This document shows, piece after piece, positions 21,086 to 57,127 of a DNA stretch of 61,503 nt. Source of the DNA: Candidatus Thorarchaeota archaeon (GTDB lineage: Archaea > Asgardarchaeota > Thorarchaeia > Thorarchaeales > Thorarchaeaceae); the NCBI GenBank assembly GCA_020348985.1, contig CP070761.1, forward strand, positions 1,459,646-1,521,148. Direction: 5' to 3'. Both the position numbers and the translations under genes were made by a program. Positions within the stretch are counted from its first letter, which is position 1. Each line of letters begins with the position of its first letter. The notes beneath the pieces were generated by a model. The model ran no database searches. It was not told the origin of the DNA and worked only from the letters and a program-made list of their open reading frames with translations.

Positions 21086-21201
21086 AAGGAGGAAGAGCTC
21101 GAAGAACTGCTGGTGACGGTTCCCTTTTGCGCGAAAGGACCTCTGAAATAACCATTAATATGCCGGGGATAAGTGAGAACCCGAGTGAGGCGGTTACATC
21201 C

Positions 21202-21735
21202 ATGAGACCTTATCTGTTCAAGCTCATTGCTCTAGGCGATGGCACTACAGGTAAGACCAGTCTCGTGAAGAGGTATACCGAGGGCACTTTCCAGCATGAC
21301 TACAAGGCCACCATTGGGGCAACATTCGCACTGAAGCACTTGGACTTCGAAATGGATAACGGTTCATCAGCCAAAGCCAAAGTTGTCGTATGGGACATAG
21401 CTGGACAACCATCATTTCGGGAAATGAGATCTAGATATATGGAGGGTGCTTCAATGGCGTTCATAGTCTTTGATGTGACTCGTCCTGATACATTCCTGAA
21501 TGTTGCGAATTGGTATGGAGCGCTTATGAAGAAATCCCCTGACTGTATTGTTGCGGCAGTGGCGAACAAGATTGATCTCACTGAAAGAGCTGTGCCTTCT
21601 GAGGTTGGTGGCGTTCTAGAGAACTGGATTGATGTGATCTATGTGGAGACGTCGGCTCTCACTGGAGAGAATGTCGATCATATGTTCTCTGAACTGGTCA
21701 AGAGAGCCGTCCAGAGATTCGGCCCTGAGAACTGA
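21202..21735 (+). CDS. Rab-like small GTPase (eukaryotic signature protein)
   Basis: G1 GDGTTGKTS, G2 YKATIG, G3 WDIAGQ, G4 NKID and G5 ETSAL; no C-terminal prenylation Cys. Start may be 21160. Confidence 0.92.
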   Translation: MRPYLFKLIALGDGTTGKTSLVKRYTEGTFQHDYKATIGATFALKHLDFEMDNGSSAKAKVVVWDIAGQPSFREMRSRYMEGASMAFIVFDVTRPDTFLNVANWYGALMKKSPDCIVAAVANKIDLTERAVPSEVGGVLENWIDVIYVETSALTGENVDHMFSELVKRAVQRFGPEN

Positions 21736-21786: not shown

Positions 21787-23304
21787 CTATAGTCCCAGCA
21801 GTGCTGCAGCCGCTTCAAATGCGTAGTCGAGAACTGCACCGGGCAGGATGAACAGCGCGATGACTGCTACGACGCAGAAGATCACTGCTAGCAGTGGCAC
21901 ACGAGCCAGCCTTAGCTGCGAGCTGTCAATAGGCTCCACCATATAGCAGTACCTAAGCACTCTCAGATAGTAGCCGAGTGAGAAGACTGAATTTAGGAGG
22001 CCTATGAATGCGAGCCACCACATTCCCACTTCCACAGCGCTCTGAAACAGTATAAGCTTGGACCAGAATCCCGCAGTGAGTGGCATTCCAGCAAGAGCTA
22101 GCATGAGTAGTGAAAGCATCGCCGCAATGGCAGGTGCTCTCTTGGATAGCCCAGCGAGGTCATCATAGGTTATCGACTTGGCAAGCTTTAGCGACATAGC
22201 CCAGATGAGAATGAACGCACCAGTCTTCATCAGAGCGTGAGTGAACGCATGGAACATGGCGGCTGCAGCCCCTAATTGTGTGGCGGCGGCGACGCCGATG
22301 AACAGATACCCCATCATGGCAATCGAGGAGTAAGCGAACATCCTCATGATGTCACGTTGAGCTAGTGCCAGGACGTTTCCGATGATCATTGTCAGGATAG
22401 ACACGACGACAATCATCATCGACCAAACCGGCAGTCCTTCTCCAACCTTCGCTAGGATGAAGCCTACCATCAGTATTCTCACTAGAGCGCTTATGCCTGT
22501 CTTCTTCGTTGCTCCTGCAAGATATGCCACAACACTTCCGTCTGCTGTGGCGTAGGTGTCTGGTACCCACATCCAGCCTGGGAAGATACCAATCTTGAAA
22601 CCAAATGCAATTACAAACAGTATCATGGCCAATGTCAGCGGAAATGCAGCCTCACCAAGAGGAGCGACGTAGACTGTTCCAACAGTGCTTGCTAGTTGAG
22701 CAAGGGAGGTCTCTCCGGTCACTCCGTAGACAAGCGAAATACCAAAGACCATCAACATAGTCGAGAGGAGCCCCATTACGAAGTACTTGACTGCACCATC
22801 GACTGCACCCTTGTGCTTTCCAAGCGCTGCAAGCACGTAAGTTGGCGTTGACATGAGCTCCCACGCTATGAACAGTGCAACAAGGTCTGTTGCCATTACT
22901 ACCCATATTGCGCCTGCAAATGACATCAGGAGCAAGAAGTTGTATGTCCCTTCTGATCCTCCGTAAATCGTCGCCGACATGAGGACTAGGACAGCAACCA
23001 TCAGAATGATGTAGATGAAGAAGTCCGCAAAGGCACCTCTGACGAACAGACCCCCAAACGAGGTCCCATACACAGATGGATCAAATATCAACATCTCAAG
23101 TGTAGCAAGAATAACGCCAATGAAGCTCAGCCCGAGCGGATTGAACCTCAATCCCACAACCACCGCGATTAGTGAGAATACAACAAGTGTGATTGCCGGC
23201 AGGGATGCTATCCATTCCATGGGCACTACTGCAAGTATCAGGTCTCTCAAGGGTGTAAGTAGGAGTCGAAGCGAGTCGAGGATACTACTGAATAGCTGAA
23301 TCAT
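21787..23304 (-). CDS. nuoN: Complex I-like antiporter subunit NuoN
   Basis: DLVALFIAWELMS, GAVKYFVMG, GFKIGIFP..MWVPDTY and RMFAYSSIA; last gene of the operon. Confidence 0.9.
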   Translation of the reverse strand: MIQLFSSILDSLRLLLTPLRDLILAVVPMEWIASLPAITLVVFSLIAVVVGLRFNPLGLSFIGVILATLEMLIFDPSVYGTSFGGLFVRGAFADFFIYIILMVAVLVLMSATIYGGSEGTYNFLLLMSFAGAIWVVMATDLVALFIAWELMSTPTYVLAALGKHKGAVDGAVKYFVMGLLSTMLMVFGISLVYGVTGETSLAQLASTVGTVYVAPLGEAAFPLTLAMILFVIAFGFKIGIFPGWMWVPDTYATADGSVVAYLAGATKKTGISALVRILMVGFILAKVGEGLPVWSMMIVVVSILTMIIGNVLALAQRDIMRMFAYSSIAMMGYLFIGVAAATQLGAAAAMFHAFTHALMKTGAFILIWAMSLKLAKSITYDDLAGLSKRAPAIAAMLSLLMLALAGMPLTAGFWSKLILFQSAVEVGMWWLAFIGLLNSVFSLGYYLRVLRYCYMVEPIDSSQLRLARVPLLAVIFCVVAVIALFILPGAVLDYAFEAAAALLGL

Positions 23305-24848
23305 TATGGAACCACCCCTAGAATGACATTGACGATTGGTTCGATGTAGTCGAGTATCAGATCAGGCCAGAAGCCCAGCAATAGAACTGGAAGCATCATC
23401 AGGATTGGAGCAATCAGGTCACTCCACGGAGCCTCAGTCACTGGCCTTTCTTCCACAGGGTCGCTGAACACGATTCTGTTCAATGTCCATAGAAGGTACC
23501 CTACTGTCAGGAAGACTCCCAGTGCGATTAGAGATGCCCAGATGTATATCCTGACAGAGCCGAACAAGACGAGTGCCTCAGCAATGAAGCCGCTGAAGCC
23601 TGGCAGTCCGAAAGCGGCAAATGACGCAAGTATCAGAACCATTGACATCCTAGGCGCCCCTGCCATGAGACCCTTGACGTCTGGAATCTCTCGAGTTCCA
23701 GCGGCGTACTTGAGCTGGCCGGCCATGATGAACATCACTGATATTATCGTTCCATGTGAGAACATCATGAAGACAGCACCCATGATAGCAAAGCTAGCAA
23801 CACCCGCAAACTCAGGACTGCCGATTGCACCTGCAGCGACTGCAACTCCTAGCAAGACCCAAGCCATGTGGTTTATCGATGTGTACGCCACCATGCTCTT
23901 GAGATCAGTCTGGGCGAGTGCCGTGAATGCTGCGTAGATGCAAGTGAAGATGGCAAGGAGTGCAAATGGAATAGCAAGCCGAGCCATAGCTGCCGGGACA
24001 AGCCAAAGACCGAGTCTTATGAACGTGTAGCCGCCCATCTTCAGCAAGATGCCTGCCAGGATGACAGAGCCGGGGGTTGGTGCCTTCACATGCGCCCACG
24101 GTAGCCAGTTGTGTAGTGGCCAGACGGGGAGTTTGACACCGGCTCCCATGAAGACTGCGAGTGCGAATCCAATCTGGACCAGTGGTGCTAGGCTCAGCCC
24201 CTTCAGAACAACCATGTTGAAGGTGTTGCCTCCTAGGAAGAACAGTGCGAAGAAACCAACGAGCATTGCTGCCGAGCCCAGGTGAGTGTAAATGAAGAAC
24301 TTGACCGCTGCGTGTTCGCAACCTTCCTCACCCCATTGTCCAATTATGAAGAACATGGGTATGAGGACAAGCTCCCAGAACACGAAGAAGCTGATCAAGT
24401 CAAAAGACAGGAAGACTCCAAGGAGTCCGGTCTCCAGTAGAAGGAATAGTGCATAGTACGATCCCTGCTCCTTGTTGATGTGGTTTGAGCTTAGAGCTGC
24501 GATGAACACAACCAGGTTCGACAGGATGGCCATGACGATCGAGAGACCATCGACACCCAACAGGATCTGCAGAACCGGGGCACTCTCTCCGACGCCAAGG
24601 CGCCCCATCTCGAAGCCCCACCCGAAAACACCACCATTGGCGTCAACCTGTGCAGCCGGATCCATGGCCAGGGCAAGGATTATGGAATACAGAAGCTCGA
24701 AACCAGTTACAAGCAACGCGATGATTCTCGCACCTCTGCCCCGCACGATGGCGGCCAAGACTGCGCCTACTAGGGGGAGCACTATCAGTAGGAATAGCGG
24801 ATTGATTCCGAGCGCATCAATGAAATTCACTGCAAAGTCAAGTTGCAC
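23304..24848 (-). CDS. nuoM: Complex I-like antiporter subunit NuoM (M1)
   Basis: GVDGLS, FFVFWELVLIPMFFIIG.WG, KFFIYT, KLPVWPLHNWLP.AH, LLKMGGY, YTSINHM and GLPGFSGFIAE. Confidence 0.93.
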   Translation of the reverse strand: MQLDFAVNFIDALGINPLFLLIVLPLVGAVLAAIVRGRGARIIALLVTGFELLYSIILALAMDPAAQVDANGGVFGWGFEMGRLGVGESAPVLQILLGVDGLSIVMAILSNLVVFIAALSSNHINKEQGSYYALFLLLETGLLGVFLSFDLISFFVFWELVLIPMFFIIGQWGEEGCEHAAVKFFIYTHLGSAAMLVGFFALFFLGGNTFNMVVLKGLSLAPLVQIGFALAVFMGAGVKLPVWPLHNWLPWAHVKAPTPGSVILAGILLKMGGYTFIRLGLWLVPAAMARLAIPFALLAIFTCIYAAFTALAQTDLKSMVAYTSINHMAWVLLGVAVAAGAIGSPEFAGVASFAIMGAVFMMFSHGTIISVMFIMAGQLKYAAGTREIPDVKGLMAGAPRMSMVLILASFAAFGLPGFSGFIAEALVLFGSVRIYIWASLIALGVFLTVGYLLWTLNRIVFSDPVEERPVTEAPWSDLIAPILMMLPVLLLGFWPDLILDYIEPIVNVILGVVP

Positions 24849-24849
24849 T

Positions 24850-27120
24850 TCAGATCACCCCCAAGCTGATAAGAATGACAATGGCCAGCAACCCGATCCC
24901 GAAGATGAGCATCCCGACGTAGTCATTAATCATGCCAGTCTGAGCAGTCTGGCTAGACTCAGAGGCACTAACACTCTGAGTTGAGACACCCTCAGCGAAG
25001 CCGTCAACAACGTTGTCGTCGAACCATCTAACCTTCGTGGATATCGTGATGGCAGCACTTGCTGATCTGAAGTCGATTCCATCAATGATTCTATTGTCTA
25101 TCTTGACTCTATACCATTCTGCGAACCTAAGGAACTTGCCGAGAACCCAGTAGTAGAACTCGTTGATGTACCACCGGTGCTTCAGGAAGCTGTAGAGCTT
25201 GCGCCTGGCTCCTCCCTCTGGAATGACTGTGTTTGGAGCGTCTGCCCCTCTGACATAGATGATGTATCCAGGGATTCCGCCAAGTGCCAGTGCACCAAGT
25301 GTAATCACAAACGGTACTAGGCCAGGCATGGTCAGCTTAACCTCGACCATGTGAGACAACGTGTCAATCCACGCCGCTTCAGTTTGAAGTACAATGTTCT
25401 GAATGAACGGAAAGACGATGAATGCGATGATTGTGAAAGCAGCCAGGATGTACAGTGGAATCATCATCGCCGGACCGGGGTCGTGCGGAGTCGAACCATG
25501 AGAATCCTCAGAGTGGTCGCTCTCATGTTCTTCATTGTGTACGGCTGGTTCGTGGTCGTGATCATCGTGTCCTTCGTGGGGCTTGCCGTAGAACACAATA
25601 CCCATGAGTCTGATGCTGTAGAAGATTGTACAGGCAGCAGCCATCACAGCAAAGAAGAATAACAGTGATCCCATCTGATTGAGAAACACTCCTGCTTCGC
25701 CTGCTGCAGCAAGTTCGTAGGTGTACTCAATTATCGAATCCTTCGACCAGAAACCAGAGAATGGTGGTATGCCAGCCAGAGCCAAGACGCCTATCCACAT
25801 TACAGCGAAAGTCTTGGGCATGTGTTTCTTGAGACCGCCCATCTTTGTCATGTACTTCGTATGGACTGCATGTATGACTCCTCCTGCGGATAAGAACAAG
25901 AGTGCCTTGAATGCACCATGACTCACAACGTGTAAGACGCTCGACAAGTATGCTTCTTCACCCGCATGTAACAGATGAGAATCTGCGCCAATTAGAAGAC
26001 CTCCCACACCGATTGCTAGCATCATATAGCCAAGCTGACTCAGTGTCGAGAAGGCCAGTACCTGCTTCAGCTCATTTGATGTCATTCCCATCGTGGCGGT
26101 CATGAAGGCTGTAATCGCTCCAATGACTGCAATTACCAAGAAGAAGGTCTGTGCATCAGCGAGCGAGATGACTTGCAGTGCAGAGATTCCATGGTCTCCG
26201 TTGCCGCTCTCTGCAGTGGCCTCGACCATTGTTATCAAGAAACGGGCGCTGATGTAGACTCCTGCCTTGACCATTGTCGCGGCATGAATCAGAGCCGACA
26301 CTGAGGTCGGACCTGCCATAGCTTCAGGCAGCCATACCTGCAGCGGAGCCTGTCCGGACTTTCCGATTGCGCCCATGAAGATCAGCAGGAAGGTCGGAAT
26401 GAGCATCCCAGCCCCCACCATTGCCTGCCACCAGTGCTGAGCATTGTGTGCCATGTCGGTGAACGAGAATGTCCCTGTAAACATGAACAGAATGAGTATC
26501 CCTCCCAGCATGAAAGCGTCACCGATTCTGGTAACAACGAATGCCTTAGTTCCACAATGAGTGTTGTACTGGCCCTCAGTCTCGAACTGAAGCAGCGGGT
26601 TCTTGGCCTCGTAGCCCGTGGGATCAATCTCCGGTGGGTTCCTCTTGTCGTTCCAGAAGCCGATTAGACCATAGGAACAGAAGCCCATGATTTCCCAGCC
26701 GATGAATCCGATCAACAGGTTGTCACTCAATACGAGTGTGAGCATTCCGCCTCCGAAAGCAAGCATCAGGAAGAAGAAGCGGTTCCTGTCATCCTCATGC
26801 GCCATGTACTCGGTCGAGTAGACGTAGATGAGGAAACAGAGTGTGCTCGCAAGAACAGCCATCACAACTGACAGCGGGTCGAGAAGAACGCCGAACTCTA
26901 GATTCAGTGCCTCAACCCAGACCCAGCTTGTCTGTTGGGCAGTACTGCCTATGTCTGATAGCAGCGACCAACAAAGTATCATTGCGATACCCATGAAGAT
27001 TGCAGGAGTCCAATCCCTCACCTTCTCACTGTATCTACCAACCAACGGTACTAGTAGCGAACCTCCAAGGGGGAGCACAAGGATGAGCCAATAGGGTAGT
27101 CCGAACAGCATCTGATTCAC
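24850..27120 (-). CDS. nuoL: Complex I-like antiporter subunit NuoL (756 aa, extended)
   Basis: GWEIMGFCSY, TRIGD, GKSGQAPLQVWLPEAMAGPTSVSALIHAATMVKAGVY, STLSQLG, FKALLFL, GFWSKD and a C-terminal lateral helix ending QTG..DY. Confidence 0.95.
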   Translation of the reverse strand: MNQMLFGLPYWLILVLPLGGSLLVPLVGRYSEKVRDWTPAIFMGIAMILCWSLLSDIGSTAQQTSWVWVEALNLEFGVLLDPLSVVMAVLASTLCFLIYVYSTEYMAHEDDRNRFFFLMLAFGGGMLTLVLSDNLLIGFIGWEIMGFCSYGLIGFWNDKRNPPEIDPTGYEAKNPLLQFETEGQYNTHCGTKAFVVTRIGDAFMLGGILILFMFTGTFSFTDMAHNAQHWWQAMVGAGMLIPTFLLIFMGAIGKSGQAPLQVWLPEAMAGPTSVSALIHAATMVKAGVYISARFLITMVEATAESGNGDHGISALQVISLADAQTFFLVIAVIGAITAFMTATMGMTSNELKQVLAFSTLSQLGYMMLAIGVGGLLIGADSHLLHAGEEAYLSSVLHVVSHGAFKALLFLSAGGVIHAVHTKYMTKMGGLKKHMPKTFAVMWIGVLALAGIPPFSGFWSKDSIIEYTYELAAAGEAGVFLNQMGSLLFFFAVMAAACTIFYSIRLMGIVFYGKPHEGHDDHDHEPAVHNEEHESDHSEDSHGSTPHDPGPAMMIPLYILAAFTIIAFIVFPFIQNIVLQTEAAWIDTLSHMVEVKLTMPGLVPFVITLGALALGGIPGYIIYVRGADAPNTVIPEGGARRKLYSFLKHRWYINEFYYWVLGKFLRFAEWYRVKIDNRIIDGIDFRSASAAITISTKVRWFDDNVVDGFAEGVSTQSVSASESSQTAQTGMINDYVGMLIFGIGLLAIVILISLGVI

Positions 27121-27121
27121 C

Positions 27122-28657
27122 TCATGGAGTTGGAATTATGTTAGTCACTGCCTCCACTGCTGGCATGATTATGTCGACTGCCAGACCTGGGAAGATTCCG
27201 AAGATTACGATTAGTACACCCAGAATGATCTGGGGGATTGTCATAGAATTCGGACCCTCCTTCGCGTCCTCCAGGGAGTCTGGATGAGGGCCAAGGAACA
27301 CCTTCCAAAGATAACGCAGCATGTATCCTGCACTGACAATCGAGCTTGATACGGCAAGCACGGTCAGGATCAGGAATGGAAGGTCGCCTGTAGCCTGCCA
27401 TGTCTGGAATCCTCCTAGGAACATCATCCATTCGCTGGCGAAACCAGACAATGGAGGACTCCCAGCAATGCTCATTGCACCTATTGCAGCAGCAAAAGCT
27501 GTAATCGGCATCTTGTTTGAGAGACCTCCCATCAGGTTGATGTCCCTCAGGCCGGTTTGATGTATAACCGTTCCAGCCGTCATGAACAACAGGCCCTTTG
27601 AGAAGGCGTGATTGATGAGATGGAACATACCTCCTGCGGCGCCGTAGGTTGAGAAAACGCCTAGCGCAAACAGGACATAGCCCATCTGTGAAACTGATGA
27701 GTAAGCGAGAAGTCGCTTTATGTCAATCTGAGCAAGCGCCATGAAGCCACCATAGAACATGGTGATTACTCCCAGCGCGCTAATCAGGAAAGCGAGGTCT
27801 CTGGCTGCAGAGAAAAGCATGATATTGCCAAACCGCATCAAGGCGTAGGCACCGGTCTCAATCATTGCGCCTGAAAGGAGTACTGAGATTGGTGTTGGGG
27901 CTTCAGCGTGAACTGGTGGGAGCCACCAATGAATCGGGAAAACGGCCATCTTGACCAAGAAGCCTGCGGCCATCAGAATGAAGATGACTTTGATGAGTCC
28001 TGATGCTATGAGCTCCTGAATGAGAGGCCCTCCAGCAAACAGAATTGATTGAATGTCCGCGATAACGAAGCTCCCGGTGTAGAAGAACAGAAGACCGAAT
28101 CCAACCAGAATGGCTAGAGCTCCCGATTGTGTGTAGAGCCAGAACTTCATCGCCGTACGTCTCTTGGTCTCAGGCAATCCCCAGAATAGAATCAGGAAGT
28201 AGCTGGGTACAAGCATGAGCTCCCATGCGATGAAGAATTCGATGAGGTTCGTTGCCAACGTTACCCATTGCATGCCCATCAGGAAGAACAGCGTGTTGGC
28301 GAAGAACGTGGGCTTGTTGTGAGCGTGATCGGTATACCCTACCGCATAGACCACCGACAGAAATCCCAGAACAACAACAGCAAATGTGATCGGAAACGCT
28401 ATTCCGTCTAGGAAAAGACCAAACCCACCAAGAACCTCAGACCATTCTGCTTCTTCCAGGGCAACTCCACCTTCAACCATAACACGGTAGAATGGAGGCG
28501 CCATAAGCAGGGCTGCAAACCCAGAGATTCCCACTGAAATCTTTCCAGCACTGTTTCCCTCGGCAAATCGTCCTCTAAGAACATAGATGGCAAGTCCACC
28601 TAGGAATAGCACTGCCAGTGACAGGGTCATGAATGGGAACTCGAAAGTCTGCATCAT
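27122..28657 (-). CDS. nuoM: Additional NuoM-like antiporter subunit (M2)
   Basis: FFIAWELMLVPSYFLILFWG, MKFWLYT, VKMAVFPIHWWLP.VH.EAP, LAYSSVSQMG and GSPPLSGFASE; ATGA overlap with nuoI. Confidence 0.85.
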   Translation of the reverse strand: MMQTFEFPFMTLSLAVLFLGGLAIYVLRGRFAEGNSAGKISVGISGFAALLMAPPFYRVMVEGGVALEEAEWSEVLGGFGLFLDGIAFPITFAVVVLGFLSVVYAVGYTDHAHNKPTFFANTLFFLMGMQWVTLATNLIEFFIAWELMLVPSYFLILFWGLPETKRRTAMKFWLYTQSGALAILVGFGLLFFYTGSFVIADIQSILFAGGPLIQELIASGLIKVIFILMAAGFLVKMAVFPIHWWLPPVHAEAPTPISVLLSGAMIETGAYALMRFGNIMLFSAARDLAFLISALGVITMFYGGFMALAQIDIKRLLAYSSVSQMGYVLFALGVFSTYGAAGGMFHLINHAFSKGLLFMTAGTVIHQTGLRDINLMGGLSNKMPITAFAAAIGAMSIAGSPPLSGFASEWMMFLGGFQTWQATGDLPFLILTVLAVSSSIVSAGYMLRYLWKVFLGPHPDSLEDAKEGPNSMTIPQIILGVLIVIFGIFPGLAVDIIMPAVEAVTNIIPTP

Positions 28658-29085
28658 CGGAATCTTCTCCCTCGCCACTCAAGTGGGTCACGTTCAAGAG
28701 TCTCAATTTTGTCGGGGCCATAGAGGAGGTCGTCTCTTTCACCCTCGCTGAGGTCGACTATCGGTGTGTGGAATAGTGAATCGAAGCGACATGCTTCGAC
28801 ACATAGACCGCAGAAAATGCACCTTGAGTAGTCGAAGTATAGCGCTGCGTCCTTCTCGTACATCTTGTCCTCTTTGTCGATTCGAATTGCCACTACTGGA
28901 CAAGCACGTACACACTGTGAGCAAGCTGTACACTTCTCACGAATGTGGATGTGCCGACCCCTGGTTCGCTCAGGATAGTACCTGTCCTCGAAGGGGTAGA
29001 GGCTAGTGAAGGGTCTCACGAACACTTGTCTGAAGACATGTTTGAAGATTCTGAACATGTCGCCTAGTACGCTAAAGAACCCCAT
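28654..29085 (-). CDS. nuoI: NuoI, 2x[4Fe-4S] subunit
   Basis: T.LYP.E...RTRGRH, CTACSQCVRACP and CIFCGLCVEAC. Confidence 0.93.
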   Translation of the reverse strand: MGFFSVLGDMFRIFKHVFRQVFVRPFTSLYPFEDRYYPERTRGRHIHIREKCTACSQCVRACPVVAIRIDKEDKMYEKDAALYFDYSRCIFCGLCVEACRFDSLFHTPIVDLSEGERDDLLYGPDKIETLERDPLEWRGRRFR

Positions 29086-29089
29086 CTTT

Positions 29090-30226
29090 CTATCCTCCTA
29101 TGACAAGAAGCGCCAGTCCTGGGAAGTAGGCAATCGCCAGGAGGGCAACGACGACGTTCAACACTGACAGTGGAAGTAAGTACTTCCAGCAGTAGCGCAC
29201 AATTTGATCCTGCCTGAGTCTGTAGAACGATGATGTCACTATTACAAAGAAGAAGAACACAACCAGGAACTTGATAATGAAATTGACAACTGCGGGAATG
29301 AACGGTAGTCCCCAGAAGCCTCCAAAGAATAGTGTCACCAGTAGTGCGCTGTAAAGCAACTGCTCGGCAAATTCAGCGAAGTAGGTCATTGTGAAGTAAA
29401 TGCCTGAGAACTCAGTCCTCCACCCGAAGATGATCTCCGAGTCTGCCACCGGTGCGTCGAACGGAAATGTTCCAACCGAGGCAATCGCAGCCACCAAGAA
29501 TGTGACCATGTTCACTGGCAGAAGAACCACGTACCAGATGCCTGCTTGAGCCTGTGCGATTCCCATCACACTCAACGATCCAGCTAGTAGTGCTGGGCCC
29601 ACCGATGAGATAATCATCGGAATCTCGCATGCAAACTGATTGTTTGCTGCTCTGAATCCGCCTATCAATGAGTACTTCGAACCAGAAATCCATCCCGATA
29701 GAAGCGCTATCACGGGCACTGCTGTTAGGAAGGCAAAGACAAGGACTAGGCTGACTGAAAGGTCTGCAATGAACCAAGAGCTATCCCAGGGGATGAAGGC
29801 GAAAGGCAATAGAACTATGATAAGCAAGAATGATGGTAGGAACCTGTACATCCAGCGTCTGGCTTTCTCTGGGATGATGGTCTCCTTTGAGATGAGCTTT
29901 ATAGCGTCCGCAAACAATTGGAGTCCGCCGTACTTCCCAATGTGAAAAGGCCCTCTTCGCGCTTGTATTCGTCCCCACAACTTCCGCGTAGACCATACTG
30001 CAAATATAATCCCCATCACGATGAAGATTAGCCCAGGAAATATGACCGCCTTGAACAAGAAGCCGATGTTGTAGACAACAACACTCCAGACGTAAACGAA
30101 GATTGCCCAGATGCTGCTGAGCCACCAGAAGATGGCTCGGACCCACCACGAAATGACATCGTGAAGCCAGGTCGGTATTCCAAAGAGCCAGTCGACAATT
30201 CCATCAATCCATGTCTGCATTGTCAT
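29090..30226 (-). CDS. nuoH: NuoH membrane subunit
   Basis: RIQARRGP, GGLQLFADAIKLISKE, SKYSLIGGFRA, PFDAPVADSEI..G..TEFSG and RLRQDQ. ATG 30226 follows a GGAGGTGA SD. Confidence 0.93.
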   Translation of the reverse strand: MTMQTWIDGIVDWLFGIPTWLHDVISWWVRAIFWWLSSIWAIFVYVWSVVVYNIGFLFKAVIFPGLIFIVMGIIFAVWSTRKLWGRIQARRGPFHIGKYGGLQLFADAIKLISKETIIPEKARRWMYRFLPSFLLIIVLLPFAFIPWDSSWFIADLSVSLVLVFAFLTAVPVIALLSGWISGSKYSLIGGFRAANNQFACEIPMIISSVGPALLAGSLSVMGIAQAQAGIWYVVLLPVNMVTFLVAAIASVGTFPFDAPVADSEIIFGWRTEFSGIYFTMTYFAEFAEQLLYSALLVTLFFGGFWGLPFIPAVVNFIIKFLVVFFFFVIVTSSFYRLRQDQIVRYCWKYLLPLSVLNVVVALLAIAYFPGLALLVIGG

Positions 30227-30234
30227 GTCACCTC

Positions 30235-31371
30235 CTAGCGATCCCACCATCCCGGATACGGGTCCAAGCTGCCGAATATTACGATGAAGTCCGCGAACTT
30301 CGAGCTGGGAACGAGATGTTTCAGAGAGTAGTATGAGGAGAAGCAAGGGCCCCGTATCTTGGCCCGCCAAGGAGTCTGCGCCTTGTCCTGTGTCTTCAGC
30401 CATAGTGTGGTAACTCCTCTTGTACCTTCTACTCGGCCGTAGGCTTCTCCTTCTGGAAGTCTGTTGGCCTTGGCTCTGTGCTTCGGGTCGATGATTGGGC
30501 CATCTGGAACCTGAGGCAAGAGCTGCTTGATAATGCCCAATGAGGTCTCGACTTCGAGAAACCTCTGAACCATTCTGTCATACGCGTCGCTTTCCCCAGG
30601 GTGGTCTTCATTGTGAACAGTCGGAACTTCCCAATCACACATATCATATGCAAGACTGGGATCTGGATCATCTTTGCGCAGGTCCATGGGGACACCACAA
30701 GCTTTGATGTTTGGACCTGAGAGACCCCACTTGAGACCCTGCTCTGCTGTAAACTGACCGATGCCCTGTGTTCTAACCCTGAATGTTGGCCCCCTTAGTA
30801 GCATATCTTTGAACTTGGGTAGACGATCCTCGATACGGTCCATTGCTCTCTCGAGCTTCGCGATAACACCTTCATTGAAGTCATACTTGACGCCGCCTGG
30901 GGTGTTGTAAGATACTGCATGACGAGAACCTGAAAGCTCTTCAAAAGCGTCAAGGAAGAATTCTCTATCAACCCATGGCCACAAGAGCATTGTGAAGAGA
31001 CCTAGCTCTGCGGCAAACTGACCCCACCAGAACTGCAAGCTGTGAATCCTACTTGCTTCCATCATTATTGTGCGCATGACCTTGGCACGCTCAGGAACTT
31101 CGAGTCCGGCAATCTTCTCAACTGCAGTCACGTACGGATATTCTGCCAAGAATGCCTCTAGCATGCAGAGCCGCTCCATTATGAGCGCGCCCTGTCTGAA
31201 GTTTCTGAACTCCATGACCTTCTCCGCAGACCTGTGGAAGTAGCCTGCGTTGGGATCACATTCCACGATGTAGTCGCCGACCAGAGTCAGTTTCGTCGCC
31301 CATCCGTGAGCGGAAACGTGCTGTGGACCGAACCAGATCTCGATTGCATCATCAACAATGTCGGTTTTCAT
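30235..31371 (-). CDS. nuoD: NuoD-like subunit without NiFe ligands
   Basis: FGPQH..AHG, GYFHRSAEK, VPERA, GGV..D, GEAYGRVE..RG and C-terminal SLDP....DR; no CxxC pairs. Confidence 0.9.
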   Translation of the reverse strand: MKTDIVDDAIEIWFGPQHVSAHGWATKLTLVGDYIVECDPNAGYFHRSAEKVMEFRNFRQGALIMERLCMLEAFLAEYPYVTAVEKIAGLEVPERAKVMRTIMMEASRIHSLQFWWGQFAAELGLFTMLLWPWVDREFFLDAFEELSGSRHAVSYNTPGGVKYDFNEGVIAKLERAMDRIEDRLPKFKDMLLRGPTFRVRTQGIGQFTAEQGLKWGLSGPNIKACGVPMDLRKDDPDPSLAYDMCDWEVPTVHNEDHPGESDAYDRMVQRFLEVETSLGIIKQLLPQVPDGPIIDPKHRAKANRLPEGEAYGRVEGTRGVTTLWLKTQDKAQTPWRAKIRGPCFSSYYSLKHLVPSSKFADFIVIFGSLDPYPGWWDR

Positions 31372-31937
31372 TCTGGCGACTCTCCTCCTTCCTTGGGCGT
31401 CGTCGATGGCGTAGGCCGCGCAGGCCTCTCTGCCGCTGGGGGTTTTGGTTTCGGTTGTGGGAGACCGGACTCCTCAAGTCGACTTCTATCGGTCTGGAAA
31501 CTCTTCCTTAGAGGATATTTGCCTTCGAGCTCTTCGGGCAGCAGCAGCAGTCTCAAGTCTGGATGTCCGCTGAACCCGATTCCAAACATCTCATGAGTCT
31601 CACGTTCGTGCCACTCGAATCCCGGATAGATGTCTGATACCGATTCTACTTCGGGTGCTTCACCTTCTATTGGAACTCTTAGCTGACATAGAAGCTTGTT
31701 CGAATGCGACCAGAATATGTAGATCAACTCGTACTGGTCATTCTCAAGATCAACAGCAAACATTGACTCGGGAAGAAAGTCGGAGACTGACTCATCAAGC
31801 AATGCGACGATGGCCCGTATCTTGTCGGCAGGCATGACAAGCTCGATTCTGTTTCCCTCTAGTGGATTGGCTTGAACCTCTGGGAACTTGTTCACAATAT
31901 CGCGCCCCAGAGTAGATGCCGAACCAGATGATTTCAT
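31368..31937 (-). CDS. nuoC: NuoC subunit
   Basis: SVSDIYPGFEWHERETHEMFGIGFSGHPDLR...YPLRKSF. Confidence 0.93.
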   Translation of the reverse strand: MKSSGSASTLGRDIVNKFPEVQANPLEGNRIELVMPADKIRAIVALLDESVSDFLPESMFAVDLENDQYELIYIFWSHSNKLLCQLRVPIEGEAPEVESVSDIYPGFEWHERETHEMFGIGFSGHPDLRLLLLPEELEGKYPLRKSFQTDRSRLEESGLPQPKPKPPAAERPARPTPSTTPKEGGESPE

Positions 31938-31941
31938 GTGC

Positions 31942-32262
31942 TCACTCACTCTGCATCTCCTCCTGGATACCGGGGCGTCCAAGATCGACAGTGCCGTATC
32001 TGCTATTGTACATGAGCATCAAAACCATCGCGAGAGCTGTGTGAGCTGCCGCGACTGAAATCACTAGAATCACGAGAGCCTGCCCTGTAAACGTGAAAGT
32101 CTCCATGTAGAGGGAGAGGGCGACAAGCGCGACCGTTACACCATTGGCCATGATCTCTGCGCCAATTAGGACTCGAATCAGGTTACGTTTGACAGCCATG
32201 CCATATGCGCCGAGACCAATCATCATGAAGGAGAATGTTAGATACCAAGACAGGGGGATCAT
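31942..32262 (-). CDS. nuoK: NuoK subunit
   Basis: GAYG...KRNLIRVLIGAEIMANG, GQ.L....SVAAA; 3 TM helices. Confidence 0.9.
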   Translation of the reverse strand: MIPLSWYLTFSFMMIGLGAYGMAVKRNLIRVLIGAEIMANGVTVALVALSLYMETFTFTGQALVILVISVAAAHTALAMVLMLMYNSRYGTVDLGRPGIQEEMQSE

Positions 32263-32930
32263 TCTGCCACCTCCTCCTGCTCATCTTCAGGTTCCTCTGG
32301 ACCATCTACCACCGGTGTTTCGTCCCCACCATCATTCGAGGAACCGATTCCATAGTCCTTGCTCTCTGGGTTCATCCGCTCCGCTTTCTCCATCTTCAGA
32401 ACGGCTATCGCTCCGACTAGCGCTGTAACCATAACAAGAGCAATCATCTGGACGTATATCCCGTGTTCACCCCAAAGCCACACTGCGAGTTGCTCTAGAC
32501 TTTGAGCAAGGTCCACTCGCTGTTGAGGAATACCGGTGTCCCAACCTGCTGGGGCAGGCCATTCATATAGAAGGGCCAGAGCGGCTGCAAATACAACTGC
32601 GAAGATTGAGACAAGAAGTCCCACCCTCCGTTTTGATGGCCCCTCAAATGCCTCCAAGGTCGTATCTTGCGCTCGTGGTAGCAATAGAACGCCGAATATG
32701 ATGAGAACGCTAATACCTCCCGTGTAGACCGCGATTTGCATACCGGCGATAAAGGGAGCTTCCAACAACAAGAAGAAGCCAGCTACAAGGGATGCCATGA
32801 TTCCAAAGGAGAACACTGCATAAACGATGTCCCTGTGTTCCAAAGCCAGATAGGCCAGGAAGAGGACTATGGCGGCAATCGCAATGAACTCAACTGGTTC
32901 GAGAAGATCTACTAGTTCGTTCCCTTGCAT
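32259..32930 (-). CDS. nuoJ: NuoJ subunit
   Basis: LLEAPFIAGMQIAVYTGGISVLIIF and LVGAIAV; ATG 32930 follows a GGAGGT SD. Confidence 0.9.
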   Translation of the reverse strand: MQGNELVDLLEPVEFIAIAAIVLFLAYLALEHRDIVYAVFSFGIMASLVAGFFLLLEAPFIAGMQIAVYTGGISVLIIFGVLLLPRAQDTTLEAFEGPSKRRVGLLVSIFAVVFAAALALLYEWPAPAGWDTGIPQQRVDLAQSLEQLAVWLWGEHGIYVQMIALVMVTALVGAIAVLKMEKAERMNPESKDYGIGSSNDGGDETPVVDGPEEPEDEQEEVAE

Positions 32931-32931
32931 C

Positions 32932-33363
32932 TCAGTGACCTCCAGAATGTCCTGTGCTATGGGCACGGGCTTCCTTTCGCTCCTGGTAGAGTTCAAGGGT
33001 CTCCTTGCCATCCAATGTTGTTTGAGGCAGTGTCCTCATCACGAAGTTGATTCCAAGCATGATAATGACGACGAAAATCAGAGTCTGCCAGACAACAGGG
33101 ATGTCGAGCCTGAGTGACGATGACGCAAGCAGCCATAGGAATGCGCCCATGACGTCGACGACAACGAAGAGTATCGTGTAAATGAAGTAGTTGTACGGGT
33201 AGGCAATTCGAGCGGGACCGATAGGCTCCTCACCACATTCATACGAACTCAGTTTCTCACTGTTCTGCAAAACATGGGGGCGCAATACCCATGATGCAAG
33301 CAACATCACAACAACGAGGACAACACCAAGTAACGCCCAGATCAAGACTGGGATAAAGTCCAT
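32932..33363 (-). CDS. nuoA: NuoA subunit
   Basis: K.SSYECGEEP.G.A and Y.IYTILFVVVDV; 3 TM helices. Start is 33363 or 33375. Confidence 0.92.
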   Translation of the reverse strand: MDFIPVLIWALLGVVLVVVMLLASWVLRPHVLQNSEKLSSYECGEEPIGPARIAYPYNYFIYTILFVVVDVMGAFLWLLASSSLRLDIPVVWQTLIFVVIIMLGINFVMRTLPQTTLDGKETLELYQERKEARAHSTGHSGGH

Positions 33364-33554
33364 GAATAGTCTCATCTTCGGGAACCGTCCCAATGTTTTG
33401 CCAATGGTTGAGCCCTAGGTGGGCGGTCTACCCACTAGGGTTGAGAGGGCCGCGTACAAACAGCCTAGATAAAAACGCTTCGCCATTTTTCACAAAGGAG
33501 TTATATAGAGCATCGAAATGAGAACGCCGCAGTACTGAGCTGGACTCAGGCTAG

Positions 33555-36685: not shown

Positions 36686-37912
36686 ATGAAGTTCCCTCTG
36701 CTTGAACAGTACGGTCTCCAGGACCAGCCTTTTACTTGTGCCCAATGCAGCTTCTGTCAAGTAGGAAATGGTGCATGCCCGACATACAAGGTCAAGCGTC
36801 GTGACAGTTATTCTGGAAAGGGCAAGATGATTTTGGCTAGGACACTCATCCAAGGCAGAATCAAACCCTCTGAAGGGCTCGAGGGTTTGAGAGATGCAAT
36901 CTTTGGGTGCACTCTTTGCGGAGGCTGTGAGGAAATCTGTCAGGTCGACATTCCTTTCGTCAAGATCTATCAGCTTCTTCGAGCAGACTTCCTCAGGAGA
37001 GGAATGTGGCCGGAAGAGCTTGTTCCAATGAAAGAGACCCTTGTCGATGACTTCAACGTTCAGGGTCAGGATAATGATGATAGAGTTGAAGGATGGTCAT
37101 ATTGGCATCCAGATGAAGATGCGCTTCTTGAGAAGGTTGGACAGAACGCGAAGACTGCCTTCTTCTTTGGGTGCAACTCATCATTTAGAGGAGTACCCAT
37201 CCAAGGAACAATTGCGACACTCCTAATAATGGACAAGATTGGCGAGGACTACACAGTTCTCGGAGATGAAGAGTGGTGTTGTGGTGCCCCGTTGATAATG
37301 ACAGGTGACTTCGATTCGGCGCGCAAGTTCGCTGAGCACAACATCAAGCAATACAAGGAGCTTGGTGTACAACGGATAGTAACCAATTGTCCTGGTTGTT
37401 ACAAGATGTGGGCACATGAGTATCATGAATTCCTAGACATTGACCATCCATTCGAGGTTGTCTATGGTGCTCAGTATTTCTCACGCCTCATTGATGAAGG
37501 AAAGCTCGCTGAATTCACCAACCCTCTTGATGTGACTGTTACATTCCACGATGGTTGTGACGCGGGTCGAAACTCAGGCATCTATGAGGAACCACGGAAA
37601 GTCCTCGAGCATCTGCCAGGTGTTACACTCGAAGAGCTACCTCACAACAAAGCCAACTGCTATTGTTGTGGATCCGGTGGAGTACTAAGGCCAGTTGACG
37701 CCGACTTTGCGCTGGAGATTAACAAGCTCAAAGTCGAAGACATCGAGCAGACAAGCGCAGACTGGGTTATTGCCGCTTGTCCATCGTGTGTTGACTTCAT
37801 GAATGATCAACTGCCCCAGACGGGGTCTCAGAAACGAGTAAAGGACCTCTCAGTGCTCGTTGCTGAAGCTTTGGGCCTAACGTGGGATGGGCTTGACGAG
37901 ATCTACGGCTAA
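36686..37912 (+). CDS. HdrD/GlcF-like Fe-S protein (2x[4Fe-4S] plus two CCG domains), copy 1
   Basis: CAQCSFC..CP, CTLCGGCEEIC, FGC..WCCG..CPGC and HDGC..CCG..CPSC. Confidence 0.9.
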   Translation: MKFPLLEQYGLQDQPFTCAQCSFCQVGNGACPTYKVKRRDSYSGKGKMILARTLIQGRIKPSEGLEGLRDAIFGCTLCGGCEEICQVDIPFVKIYQLLRADFLRRGMWPEELVPMKETLVDDFNVQGQDNDDRVEGWSYWHPDEDALLEKVGQNAKTAFFFGCNSSFRGVPIQGTIATLLIMDKIGEDYTVLGDEEWCCGAPLIMTGDFDSARKFAEHNIKQYKELGVQRIVTNCPGCYKMWAHEYHEFLDIDHPFEVVYGAQYFSRLIDEGKLAEFTNPLDVTVTFHDGCDAGRNSGIYEEPRKVLEHLPGVTLEELPHNKANCYCCGSGGVLRPVDADFALEINKLKVEDIEQTSADWVIAACPSCVDFMNDQLPQTGSQKRVKDLSVLVAEALGLTWDGLDEIYG

Positions 37913-55900: not shown

Positions 55901-56983
55901 TCACATATTTTGGCCGCCTGTTTCAGGCGGCGGAGCTGTGACATTCCTATAGGCAAGCCAAACCAGGACGAAACACAGCACCGTAACGATGAGCACGTAT
56001 TCAAGTGGTACCGAGAAGCCGTACAAGACGTAAGAAATGATCTGGAATATACCTGTCAACAAGTGAATCATGATAGTAGCTGCATTGGCTGGGACCAGCT
56101 CGAAAGGACGATCAAACACCTTTAATGTGTGCCTCACTGAGAATGCACTGAGTGGCAGGGTTGCGAAAACGATGAAATTCATCCACCTAATCAAGTCGAA
56201 GAAGACCCCAAAACCAATCACTATATAGACGGCCGCAATGAAGAGTGCGTATCCGTAAGATGCTCTTCTAAGACCTAGCCGGACGACGAGTGTGCGCTTT
56301 CCGGCTGCTTCATCAGCCCGTAGATCTGGAAACTCGTTGATGTACAGAATCGCGGAAATGAGCAATGCTAATGGCAATGATGCCACAAGCGATTCCAGAT
56401 CGAAAGCTTGGACTTGGACGAAATATGCGCCCATAACTAATAGAACTCCGAAGTTCAGCCCGATGAAGAACTCGCCAATACCTCGATGCACAAACCTGAA
56501 TGGAGGCGCAGTATAGAAGAATCCAGAGAAAGCTCCGATGATTCCAAGAACAAGAAGAATGAGTCCTCGGCTTAGGGCCAAGTACAGTCCGATGATACCA
56601 GCGATACCGAAGAAGACGAAGGACCCAAACAGAACCTCTCTCGGTGAAAGATACCCAAGCTGTATCATCCTGCTTCCGCCGCTGAAAGGTCTGATGAATT
56701 CAATATTGATGTCATCTGAACCAGTATCATCACTAGCATGGTCAAAGTAATCGTTCGACACGTTGGCACCAAGATGTAGACAACATCCAGCAATTACCGT
56801 AAGTAGAAACATATCCCACAGGATAACCCCGTGCAAGCCCCAAGCCATTGCAGTACCGAGAATGACTGGAACTATGGACCCTGTCAGAAACGGAAGCCTA
56901 AGCTCTATGAGCCAGGCGCGAGCTTTGCTCGGTTTTCTGGGGAGTTGGCTTTCTTCGAACTCCACGCTATCCGTTGGGACCAT
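55901..56983 (-). CDS. menA: 1,4-dihydroxy-2-naphthoate polyprenyltransferase (UbiA family)
   Basis: WLIELRLPFL, NDYFD...GSD, GGSR, YTAPP, GIGE and NEFPD..AD..AGKRTLVVRLG. Confidence 0.88.
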   Translation of the reverse strand: MVPTDSVEFEESQLPRKPSKARAWLIELRLPFLTGSIVPVILGTAMAWGLHGVILWDMFLLTVIAGCCLHLGANVSNDYFDHASDDTGSDDINIEFIRPFSGGSRMIQLGYLSPREVLFGSFVFFGIAGIIGLYLALSRGLILLVLGIIGAFSGFFYTAPPFRFVHRGIGEFFIGLNFGVLLVMGAYFVQVQAFDLESLVASLPLALLISAILYINEFPDLRADEAAGKRTLVVRLGLRRASYGYALFIAAVYIVIGFGVFFDLIRWMNFIVFATLPLSAFSVRHTLKVFDRPFELVPANAATIMIHLLTGIFQIISYVLYGFSVPLEYVLIVTVLCFVLVWLAYRNVTAPPPETGGQNM

Positions 56984-57127
56984 CTTGATTCGATGCGAGA
57001 AATCCGACTTCGATTCAAAAGGGTTTCTCCAGTTCCGCAATTAGCTCTTCTCGAAACGTTTAAGGAAGGCGTTTGTACGGTTGAGATGTACGGCGAACAG
57101 CCAGGTAATATCTTGGAGACTCATTTA

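Follow-up and report, generated by a model that had tools for sequence, protein, structure and literature searches.

The question raised by this locus is whether a complex I-like operon in a member of Candidatus Thorarchaeota encodes an enzyme with four antiporter-like pumps in line rather than three. The operon lies on the minus strand of the window (the whole stretch of 61,503 nucleotides of contig CP070761.1 analysed here) and, according to its Pfam matches, runs from ~36.5 down to 21.8 kb. In the 2M design of complex I, as described in PMC9040806, PMC6606698, PMC7117926 and PMC7300363, which refer to Chadwick et al. (2018, ISME J 12:2668), a second M-type gene goes together with an insertion of ~26 residues in the lateral helix of NuoL. 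We conclude, with a probability of about 0.75, that the window encodes, for a Thorarchaeon, a complex I-like enzyme of the 2M type, made up of NuoA/J/K/H, NuoC/D/I, a fusion of NuoB to a flavoprotein, and an arm of N, M1, M2 and L.

An earlier note on this DNA had placed four antiporter-like genes in one operon in the order M2-L-M1-N, and Pfam bears this out: PF00361 (Proton_antipo_M) is found in four adjacent minus-strand genes in just that order, which together code for ~2,300 residues. They are the only PF00361 genes in the genome, a single contig of 3.16 Mb that was searched throughout. The gene order of the cluster is A-J-K-C-D-H-I-M2-L-M1-N, and each of the core subunits A, B, C, D, H, I, J and K has a Pfam match, that of NuoB falling in the C-terminal domain of a 664-residue fusion protein. 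The M2/L and L/M1 junctions are gaps of 1 base and the M1/N junction is an overlap of 1 base. The datasets listed as containing the M2-L stretch are sediment metagenomes recorded as DNA, none of them RNA. The best start of M2 is the ATG at 28657, which overlaps the nuoI stop codon as ATGA and agrees with the end coordinate in the earlier note; an alternative GTG at 28678 would give 518 residues (open reading frame 27122–28678). For NuoL, the database entry begins with the ATG at 27111, which gives 753 residues. The closest homologues of both NuoL and M2 all come from Candidatus Thorarchaeota, with identities of 63–94%.

Two D-x4-DG units lie in the lateral helix of NuoL, one as KIDNRIIDG (residues 673–681, window 25078–25104) and the other as FDDNVVDG (residues 700–707, window 25000–25023), the starts of the two units being 26 residues (78 nt) apart. 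Checked on the translation, these are exactly the motifs, positions and spacing given in the earlier note. The spacing of 26 residues is preserved in ~113 of 119 Thorarchaeota homologues of NuoL. Compared at a shift of 26, the two 28-residue segments reach a score of 14, where shuffling gives −21 on average (standard deviation 10.7, p ~ 0.002). This self-similarity is modest and the signal comes mostly from the D...DG motif itself; in many of the bacterial NuoL sampled, the two helix units are far more similar to each other than they are in the Thorarchaeota protein. In HMMER alignments, T. elongatus NdhF, which has a single motif, pairs that motif with copy 1 by way of the upstream WY..E.Y context, and M. 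smegmatis NuoL, likewise with a single motif, pairs it with copy 2 by way of the downstream context of QTG and transmembrane helix 16 (TM16). That the two single motifs pair with different copies is the pattern expected for the tandem gain of one unit.

The length of the helix was expressed as the number of residues between a WY anchor (WYxxxxY; W650 here) and a QTG anchor (Q727 here), in an alignment of the C-terminal tails of E. coli NuoL and of ~150 representative NuoL sequences retrieved by a full HMMER search. The anchor spacings in the ~150 proteins fall into classes of ~25 (n = 7), 48–53 (n = 64), 76–82 (n = 69) and 102–105 (n = 10), in a sample skewed to long forms by the long query. 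The spacing is 77 in this NuoL, 48 in E. coli and 51 in the sister three-pump loci. The insertion of ~26 residues that had been proposed is thus seen in the alignment as a net gain of one unit, relative both to the E. coli type and to the closest three-pump archaeal NuoL. The AlphaFold2 model of NuoL (predicted local distance difference test score, pLDDT, 88; predicted template modelling score 0.87), whose best fold matches are NuoL/NdhF chains, has helices at residues 638–647, 649–705 and 713–727, followed by TM16 at 731–752; there are thus ~90 helical residues before TM16. Elsewhere in the protein, residues 523–548 (window 25477–25554, minus strand) form a loop rich in His, Asp and Glu between TM13 and TM14, modelled at low confidence; His-rich loops are similarly placed in cyanobacterial NdhF and in Paracoccus NuoL.

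How far the length of the helix goes with the number of pump genes can be seen from the relatives of this NuoL. In a tree of L subunits calculated without the helix columns, it belongs to a clade of 11 sequences from Thor, Heimdall and 'Asgardarchaeia' genomes, all with a spacing of 77 (Shimodaira–Hasegawa approximate likelihood ratio test support 97). The order M2-L-M1-N is found in all seven loci of the clade that are readable, namely the window, L003 from the same genus, L006 from another family and with an unfused NuoB, L009 from Heimdall, L010, L020 and L021. The sister loci, with a spacing of 50–51, have three antiporter genes in five cases out of five. Four of these (L002, L004, L005, L007) are the second 'J-K-L-X1-X2' cluster of many other Thorarchaeia, in which L has ~675 residues and a spacing of 51, and the fifth, L011, is a NiFe-type cluster. 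The second cluster is without a counterpart in the genome studied here, and with the queries used no homologues of NuoB, C, D, H or I were seen beside it.

Several observations weigh against a 2M-type enzyme in which the helix has lengthened to hold a further pump. The association just described, seven of seven loci against none of five, is probably a single evolutionary event. L018 has a spacing of 77 and L015 one of 79, yet both have three genes, in a split cluster in the former and beside hyp genes in the latter, and a Hodarchaeota locus (L014:5719–11156) reaches a spacing of 104 although L is followed there by just a NuoM-type and a NuoN-type gene (order L-M-N). The confidence of the AlphaFold2 model is low over NuoL residues 700–730, that is, over the second helix unit (pLDDT 43–48), as is expected of an exposed helix modelled without its partners. 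Finally, M2 has Glu at the position of the essential Lys265 of E. coli NuoM, in TM8. With the Mrp-like L016 (spacing 78) as a further exception beside L014, L015 and L018, the strict rule that helix units count pumps was rejected as a general one. Since longer helices without an extra pump are common outside this lineage, the helix alone is weak evidence, and it is the combination with the fourth gene that counts.

The loci L018, L015 and L014, with spacings of 77–104 and just three antiporter genes, are what speaks for a different account, in which M2 belongs to the complex but is unrelated to the lengthening of the helix. The extra helix unit would then be an inherited trait of the lineage that covers something else or loops out, and M2 would occupy another place, such as one distal to L. 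This account has to contend with the joint occurrence of helix unit and fourth gene throughout the readable loci of the clade and in none of the sister group. To our knowledge, moreover, no relative of complex I has a pump beyond L without a helix that holds it, and we regard the account as improbable.

M2 is 30% identical to M1 and 68–94% identical across 120 Thorarchaeota clusters. It scores 292.5 bits against TIGR01972 (NuoM), over the cut-off of 263.8, with 277 for MrpA, 253 for HyfB and 245 for NuoL. In trees of 52 to 89 antiporter-like proteins, the canonical NuoM clade holds 10 sequences, M1 and E. coli NuoM among them (support 100/100); M2 lies outside it and within the M-type superclade (100/99). 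There it falls into a loosely resolved archaeal group with X1 of the three-pump Asgard, Bathyarchaeota and Odin clusters, where the sole M subunits of Nitrosopumilus and Cenarchaeum are placed too and where internal support is weak (60/77). The identity of 30% and the separate clades led us to reject a recent duplication of nuoM as the source of M2. As M2 is of the archaeal M type and M1 of the canonical NuoM type, the arm joins two old M lineages. To judge from the tree position, and from the gene order when set against K-M-L-N of Nitrosopumilus and Cenarchaeum, M2-L-M1-N of the Asgard loci resembles an archaeal M-L-N arm into which a canonical NuoM was inserted before N; M1 may be the one that was gained in the course of evolution.

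The same trees separate M2 by a branch of 100/99 from bacterial MrpD, HyfB and HyfF, MrpD joining HyfB/HyfF, so that the grouping of M2 with stand-alone MrpD/HyfB, named beforehand as the outcome that would tell against an in-line subunit, is not what is observed. This bears directly on the suggestion that M2 is a free-standing cation/proton antiporter which shares the operon and nothing else. Its scores on the MrpA and HyfB models are nearly equal to its NuoM score, and its best plasmid matches are MrpA genes with ~35% identity, both of which would suit such an antiporter. Against them stand the separation in the trees, the fact that the nearest relatives of M2 are subunits of multi-subunit complexes, and the search of the genome for the small Mrp families, in which neither MrpE (PF01899) nor MrpG (PF03334) was found; we give the suggestion hardly any credence. 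Membership of M2 in a second complex, a role considered because relatives often have a second three-pump cluster, was rejected for this genome. With no PF00361 gene beyond the four and with MrpE and MrpG not found, the genome offers M2 no other complex.

The AlphaFold2 model of M2 shows a whole subunit of the M type. It has a pLDDT of 92, and its best structural match is 8e9g_M (Z 52.4, root-mean-square deviation 1.7 Å over 491 residues); the top 14 matches are all M/ND4/NdhD chains, with MrpD at Z 48 and NuoL cores at Z 47. The Glu of TM5 and the Lys of TM7 are kept in all four antiporter-like subunits of the operon. M1 has E, K, K, E at the key positions, the same as E. coli NuoM, and M2 has Glu, Lys, Glu, Glu in TM5, TM7, TM8 and TM12, as against Glu, Lys, Lys, Glu in canonical NuoM. 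The Glu in TM8 recurs in Hyd51_X1, a hydrogenase-type relative of M2, where NuoM and the L and N of this operon have Lys. In TM11, M2 has an L-like HxxxHxxxK, unlike E. coli NuoM. The key residues of M2 are all ionisable and are invariant or nearly so among its relatives, those of TM5, TM7 and TM12 being invariant. Identity to the orthologue from the same genus is 85% for L, 82% for M2, 71% for M1 and 65% for N.

At TM12, Glu is the signature of the M position and is present in both M1 and M2, L and N having Lys. This would suit an alternation of M1 and M2 at a single M position, giving two three-pump isoforms. The two genes nevertheless stand in one operon in which each junction is a 1-nucleotide gap or a start/stop overlap, and they are conserved together in Thor, Heimdall and other Asgard loci; alternation would also leave the gain in the NuoL helix unexplained, and we think it very unlikely. 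The full M-type model, the ionisable residues at the key channel positions and the failure to find the Mrp small subunits make M2 most likely a fourth in-line pump.

In the 2M-type enzyme that we propose, the lateral helix of NuoL would consist of ~26-residue units, each with an fD..vvDG motif, and would have one unit more than in three-pump enzymes. The extra unit would add ~39 Å, which is about the width of one antiporter-like subunit, and, if sequence and single-chain model are a guide, M2, M1 and N could all be spanned by the helix with its TM16 anchor. Given ionisable ion-path residues in each of the four subunits, the complex would most likely, by analogy with the published 2M hypothesis, translocate an additional ion in each redox cycle, compared with canonical complex I, or, in reverse, require less force per ion. 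We put forward the higher pumping yield as a hypothesis, and its energetic reading is speculative.

The redox side of the enzyme is of a less familiar kind. The sole form of NuoB here is a domain at the C-terminus of a GlcD-like, flavin adenine dinucleotide (FAD)-linked oxidase, residues 511–645 of the fusion protein matching TIGR01957 (nuoB_fam) with 170 bits. A gene for an HdrD/GlcF-like CCG iron-sulfur protein (36686–37912, plus strand) lies divergently beside it, and both the fusion and this pair of genes recur in Thorarchaeota SMTZ1-45 (L024); the Asgard 2M loci L006, L010 and L021 have a plain NuoB. In the alignment, NuoD has ERLCMLE where E. coli has DRIEY, which puts Met at the position of the quinone-binding Tyr, and the loop His is kept. 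This position is Met or Phe in other Asgard 2M loci and Tyr in a Hodarchaeota locus. The C-terminus of NuoD reads LDPYPGWWDR where hydrogenases have DPCxxC, and its scores fall under the NuoD equivalog cut-offs. The NiFe ligand motifs RxCGxC and DPCxxC are present in L011, L015 and HyfG; this NuoD has neither, for which reason a group 4 membrane-bound [NiFe] hydrogenase was rejected as the identity of the complex. A canonical 14-subunit NADH:quinone oxidoreductase was rejected likewise, because the cluster has no NuoEFG and the Tyr of NuoD is replaced by Met; homologues of NuoE, NuoF and NuoG were not found between 21.8 and 37.9 kb of the window, to which the search for NuoF was confined.

A search of the genome turned up no MqnA, MqnC or MenD. 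A MenA-like prenyltransferase is encoded in the window 27 kb from the operon (55901–57040, minus strand; TIGR00751, 106.8 bits against a cut-off of 102.15), and a UbiE-like methyltransferase elsewhere in the genome. In view of the MenA-like gene we softened the conclusion that there is no quinone at all, and a quinone-like carrier is possible. The earlier note had thought of electron transfer from a low-potential donor to menaquinone; with NuoB fused to a flavoprotein, NuoD lacking the quinone Tyr, and MqnA, MqnC and MenD not found, this has become shaky.

The literature drawn on here cites the 2M design, which was published in 2018, from Nitrospira and Chloroflexi and, among archaea, from marine heterotrophic Thaumarchaeota and Angelarchaeales, and the published 2M complexes form five clades. 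The description of the locus as a 2M complex I in an archaeon stands, in that the second M gene and the ~26-residue insertion are both there; it is not new in itself, archaeal examples having been published for marine heterotrophic Thaumarchaeota (PMC7300363) and Angelarchaeales (10.1101/2021.05.03.442362). In having a second M-type gene in the cluster and a NuoL helix ~26 residues longer, the Thorarchaeota locus is like the 2M complexes of that literature, and like their Nitrospira clade 3 and thaumarchaeal clade 2 it has no NuoEFG genes in the cluster. It is unlike them, as there described, in the order A-J-K-C-D-H-I-M2-L-M1-N, in drawing its M subunits from different old lineages (30% identity), in the fusion of NuoB to a flavoprotein and in the NuoD without the quinone-binding Tyr.

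The three-pump relatives among Asgard and TACK archaea (J-K-L-X1-X2, L011 and the K-M-L-N of Nitrosopumilus) have NuoL in the same archaeal L clade (support 98/97) and an M/X1 subunit that groups with M2. They differ in a spacing of 50–53 and in having three antiporter genes, and L011 keeps the NiFe cysteines of the large subunit. The loci of Nitrosopumilus and Cenarchaeum (L089:8920–14063 and L058:8650–14007), with K-M-L-N, a spacing of 53 and a single M, which is of the M2 type, are not 2M, contrary to a general statement on ammonia oxidisers in 10.1101/2021.05.03.442362. Complex_I_3 of Ca. Manganitrophaceae (PMC9040806) likewise pairs extra pumps with a 26-residue helix insertion; it has five pumps, with MrpD-like subunits in place of NuoL, whereas the Thorarchaeota locus has four and a true NuoL. 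Five-pump complex I is termed unique to Manganitrophaceae in that paper, with which the following may be compared. Two archaeal clusters of our set (L012:6912–13976 and L013:7090–14271), one of them from Geothermarchaeales, have NuoL with three extra-length helix units and a spacing of 104–105. In L013 there are five PF00361 genes, L being flanked by two on each side, and in L012 there are four, followed by a gene broken off at the end of the contig.

A survey of Asgard archaea (10.1101/2024.07.04.601786) describes complex I-like enzymes with shorter arms in Heimdallarchaeia, and in literature searches on Asgard with nuoM or 2M we found no published description of 2M complex I in Asgard archaea. 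The locus is a clear further example of the known 2M design and not a new kind of machine; what it adds in detail is that the two M subunits differ in ancestry, together with a clean comparison with sister loci.

The positions of the genes and of the parts of the NuoL helix are collected in Table 1. The best NCBIfam match of nuoN is TIGR01770 (NuoN) with 284.7 bits, under the cut-off of 332.6, and in the tree the protein joins E. coli NuoN within the NuoN clade. On the opposite strand, immediately past the end of nuoN, lies a gene for a Ras-family small GTPase (window 21127–21735, plus strand), a typical eukaryote-like protein of Asgard archaea.

Table 1 Genes of the complex I-like operon and parts of the NuoL lateral helix, with positions in the window
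Feature	Position	Strand	Evidence
nuoN, 505 aa, proximal antiporter-like subunit	21787..23304	-	PF00361 8.5e-61
nuoM1, 514 aa, canonical NuoM type	23304..24848	-	TIGR01972 405 bits vs cut-off 263.8
nuoL, 756 aa	24850..27120	-	PF00662 + PF00361; TIGR01974 454.8 bits, over cut-off
NuoL lateral (strap) helix HL, residues 638-727	24940..25209	-	AlphaFold2 model and anchor spacing
HL unit 1, residues 673-698, KIDNRIIDG...	25027..25104	-	HMMER alignment with T. elongatus NdhF
HL unit 2, residues 699-724, WFDDNVVDG...	24949..25026	-	HMMER alignment with M. smegmatis NuoL
NuoL TM16 anchor helix, residues 731-752	24865..24930	-	AlphaFold2 secondary structure
M2, second M-type antiporter-like subunit, 511 aa (ATG 28657)	27122..28657	-	PF00361 1.5e-71
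nuoI, two 4Fe-4S motifs	28654..29085	-	Fer4 families
nuoH	29090..30403	-	PF00146 6.5e-85
nuoD-like subunit	30235..31371	-	PF00346
nuoC	31368..31982	-	PF00329
nuoK	31942..32262	-	PF00420
nuoJ	32259..33011	-	PF00499
nuoA	32932..33393	-	PF00507
GlcD-like FAD-linked oxidase fused to NuoB, 664 aa	34553..36547	-	PF01565 + PF02913 + PF01058

The locus leaves the known 2M concept unchanged. What it means for these archaea is that a four-pump complex I is a conserved trait of Thorarchaeia that is also found in Heimdall-type and other Asgard genomes, and that a single clade offers a natural comparison of three pumps with a spacing of 51 against four pumps with a spacing of 77. A wider view, which we hold only tentatively and think rather unlikely, is that several Asgard classes share one old four-pump enzyme, which arose when a canonical bacterial-type NuoM (M1) was added to an archaeal M-L-N arm and which in Thorarchaeia was coupled to a flavoprotein-fused NuoB and a NuoD without Tyr. 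If this were true, close relatives of the eukaryotic host lineage would have a respiratory enzyme with a redox chemistry of its own and a higher ion yield.

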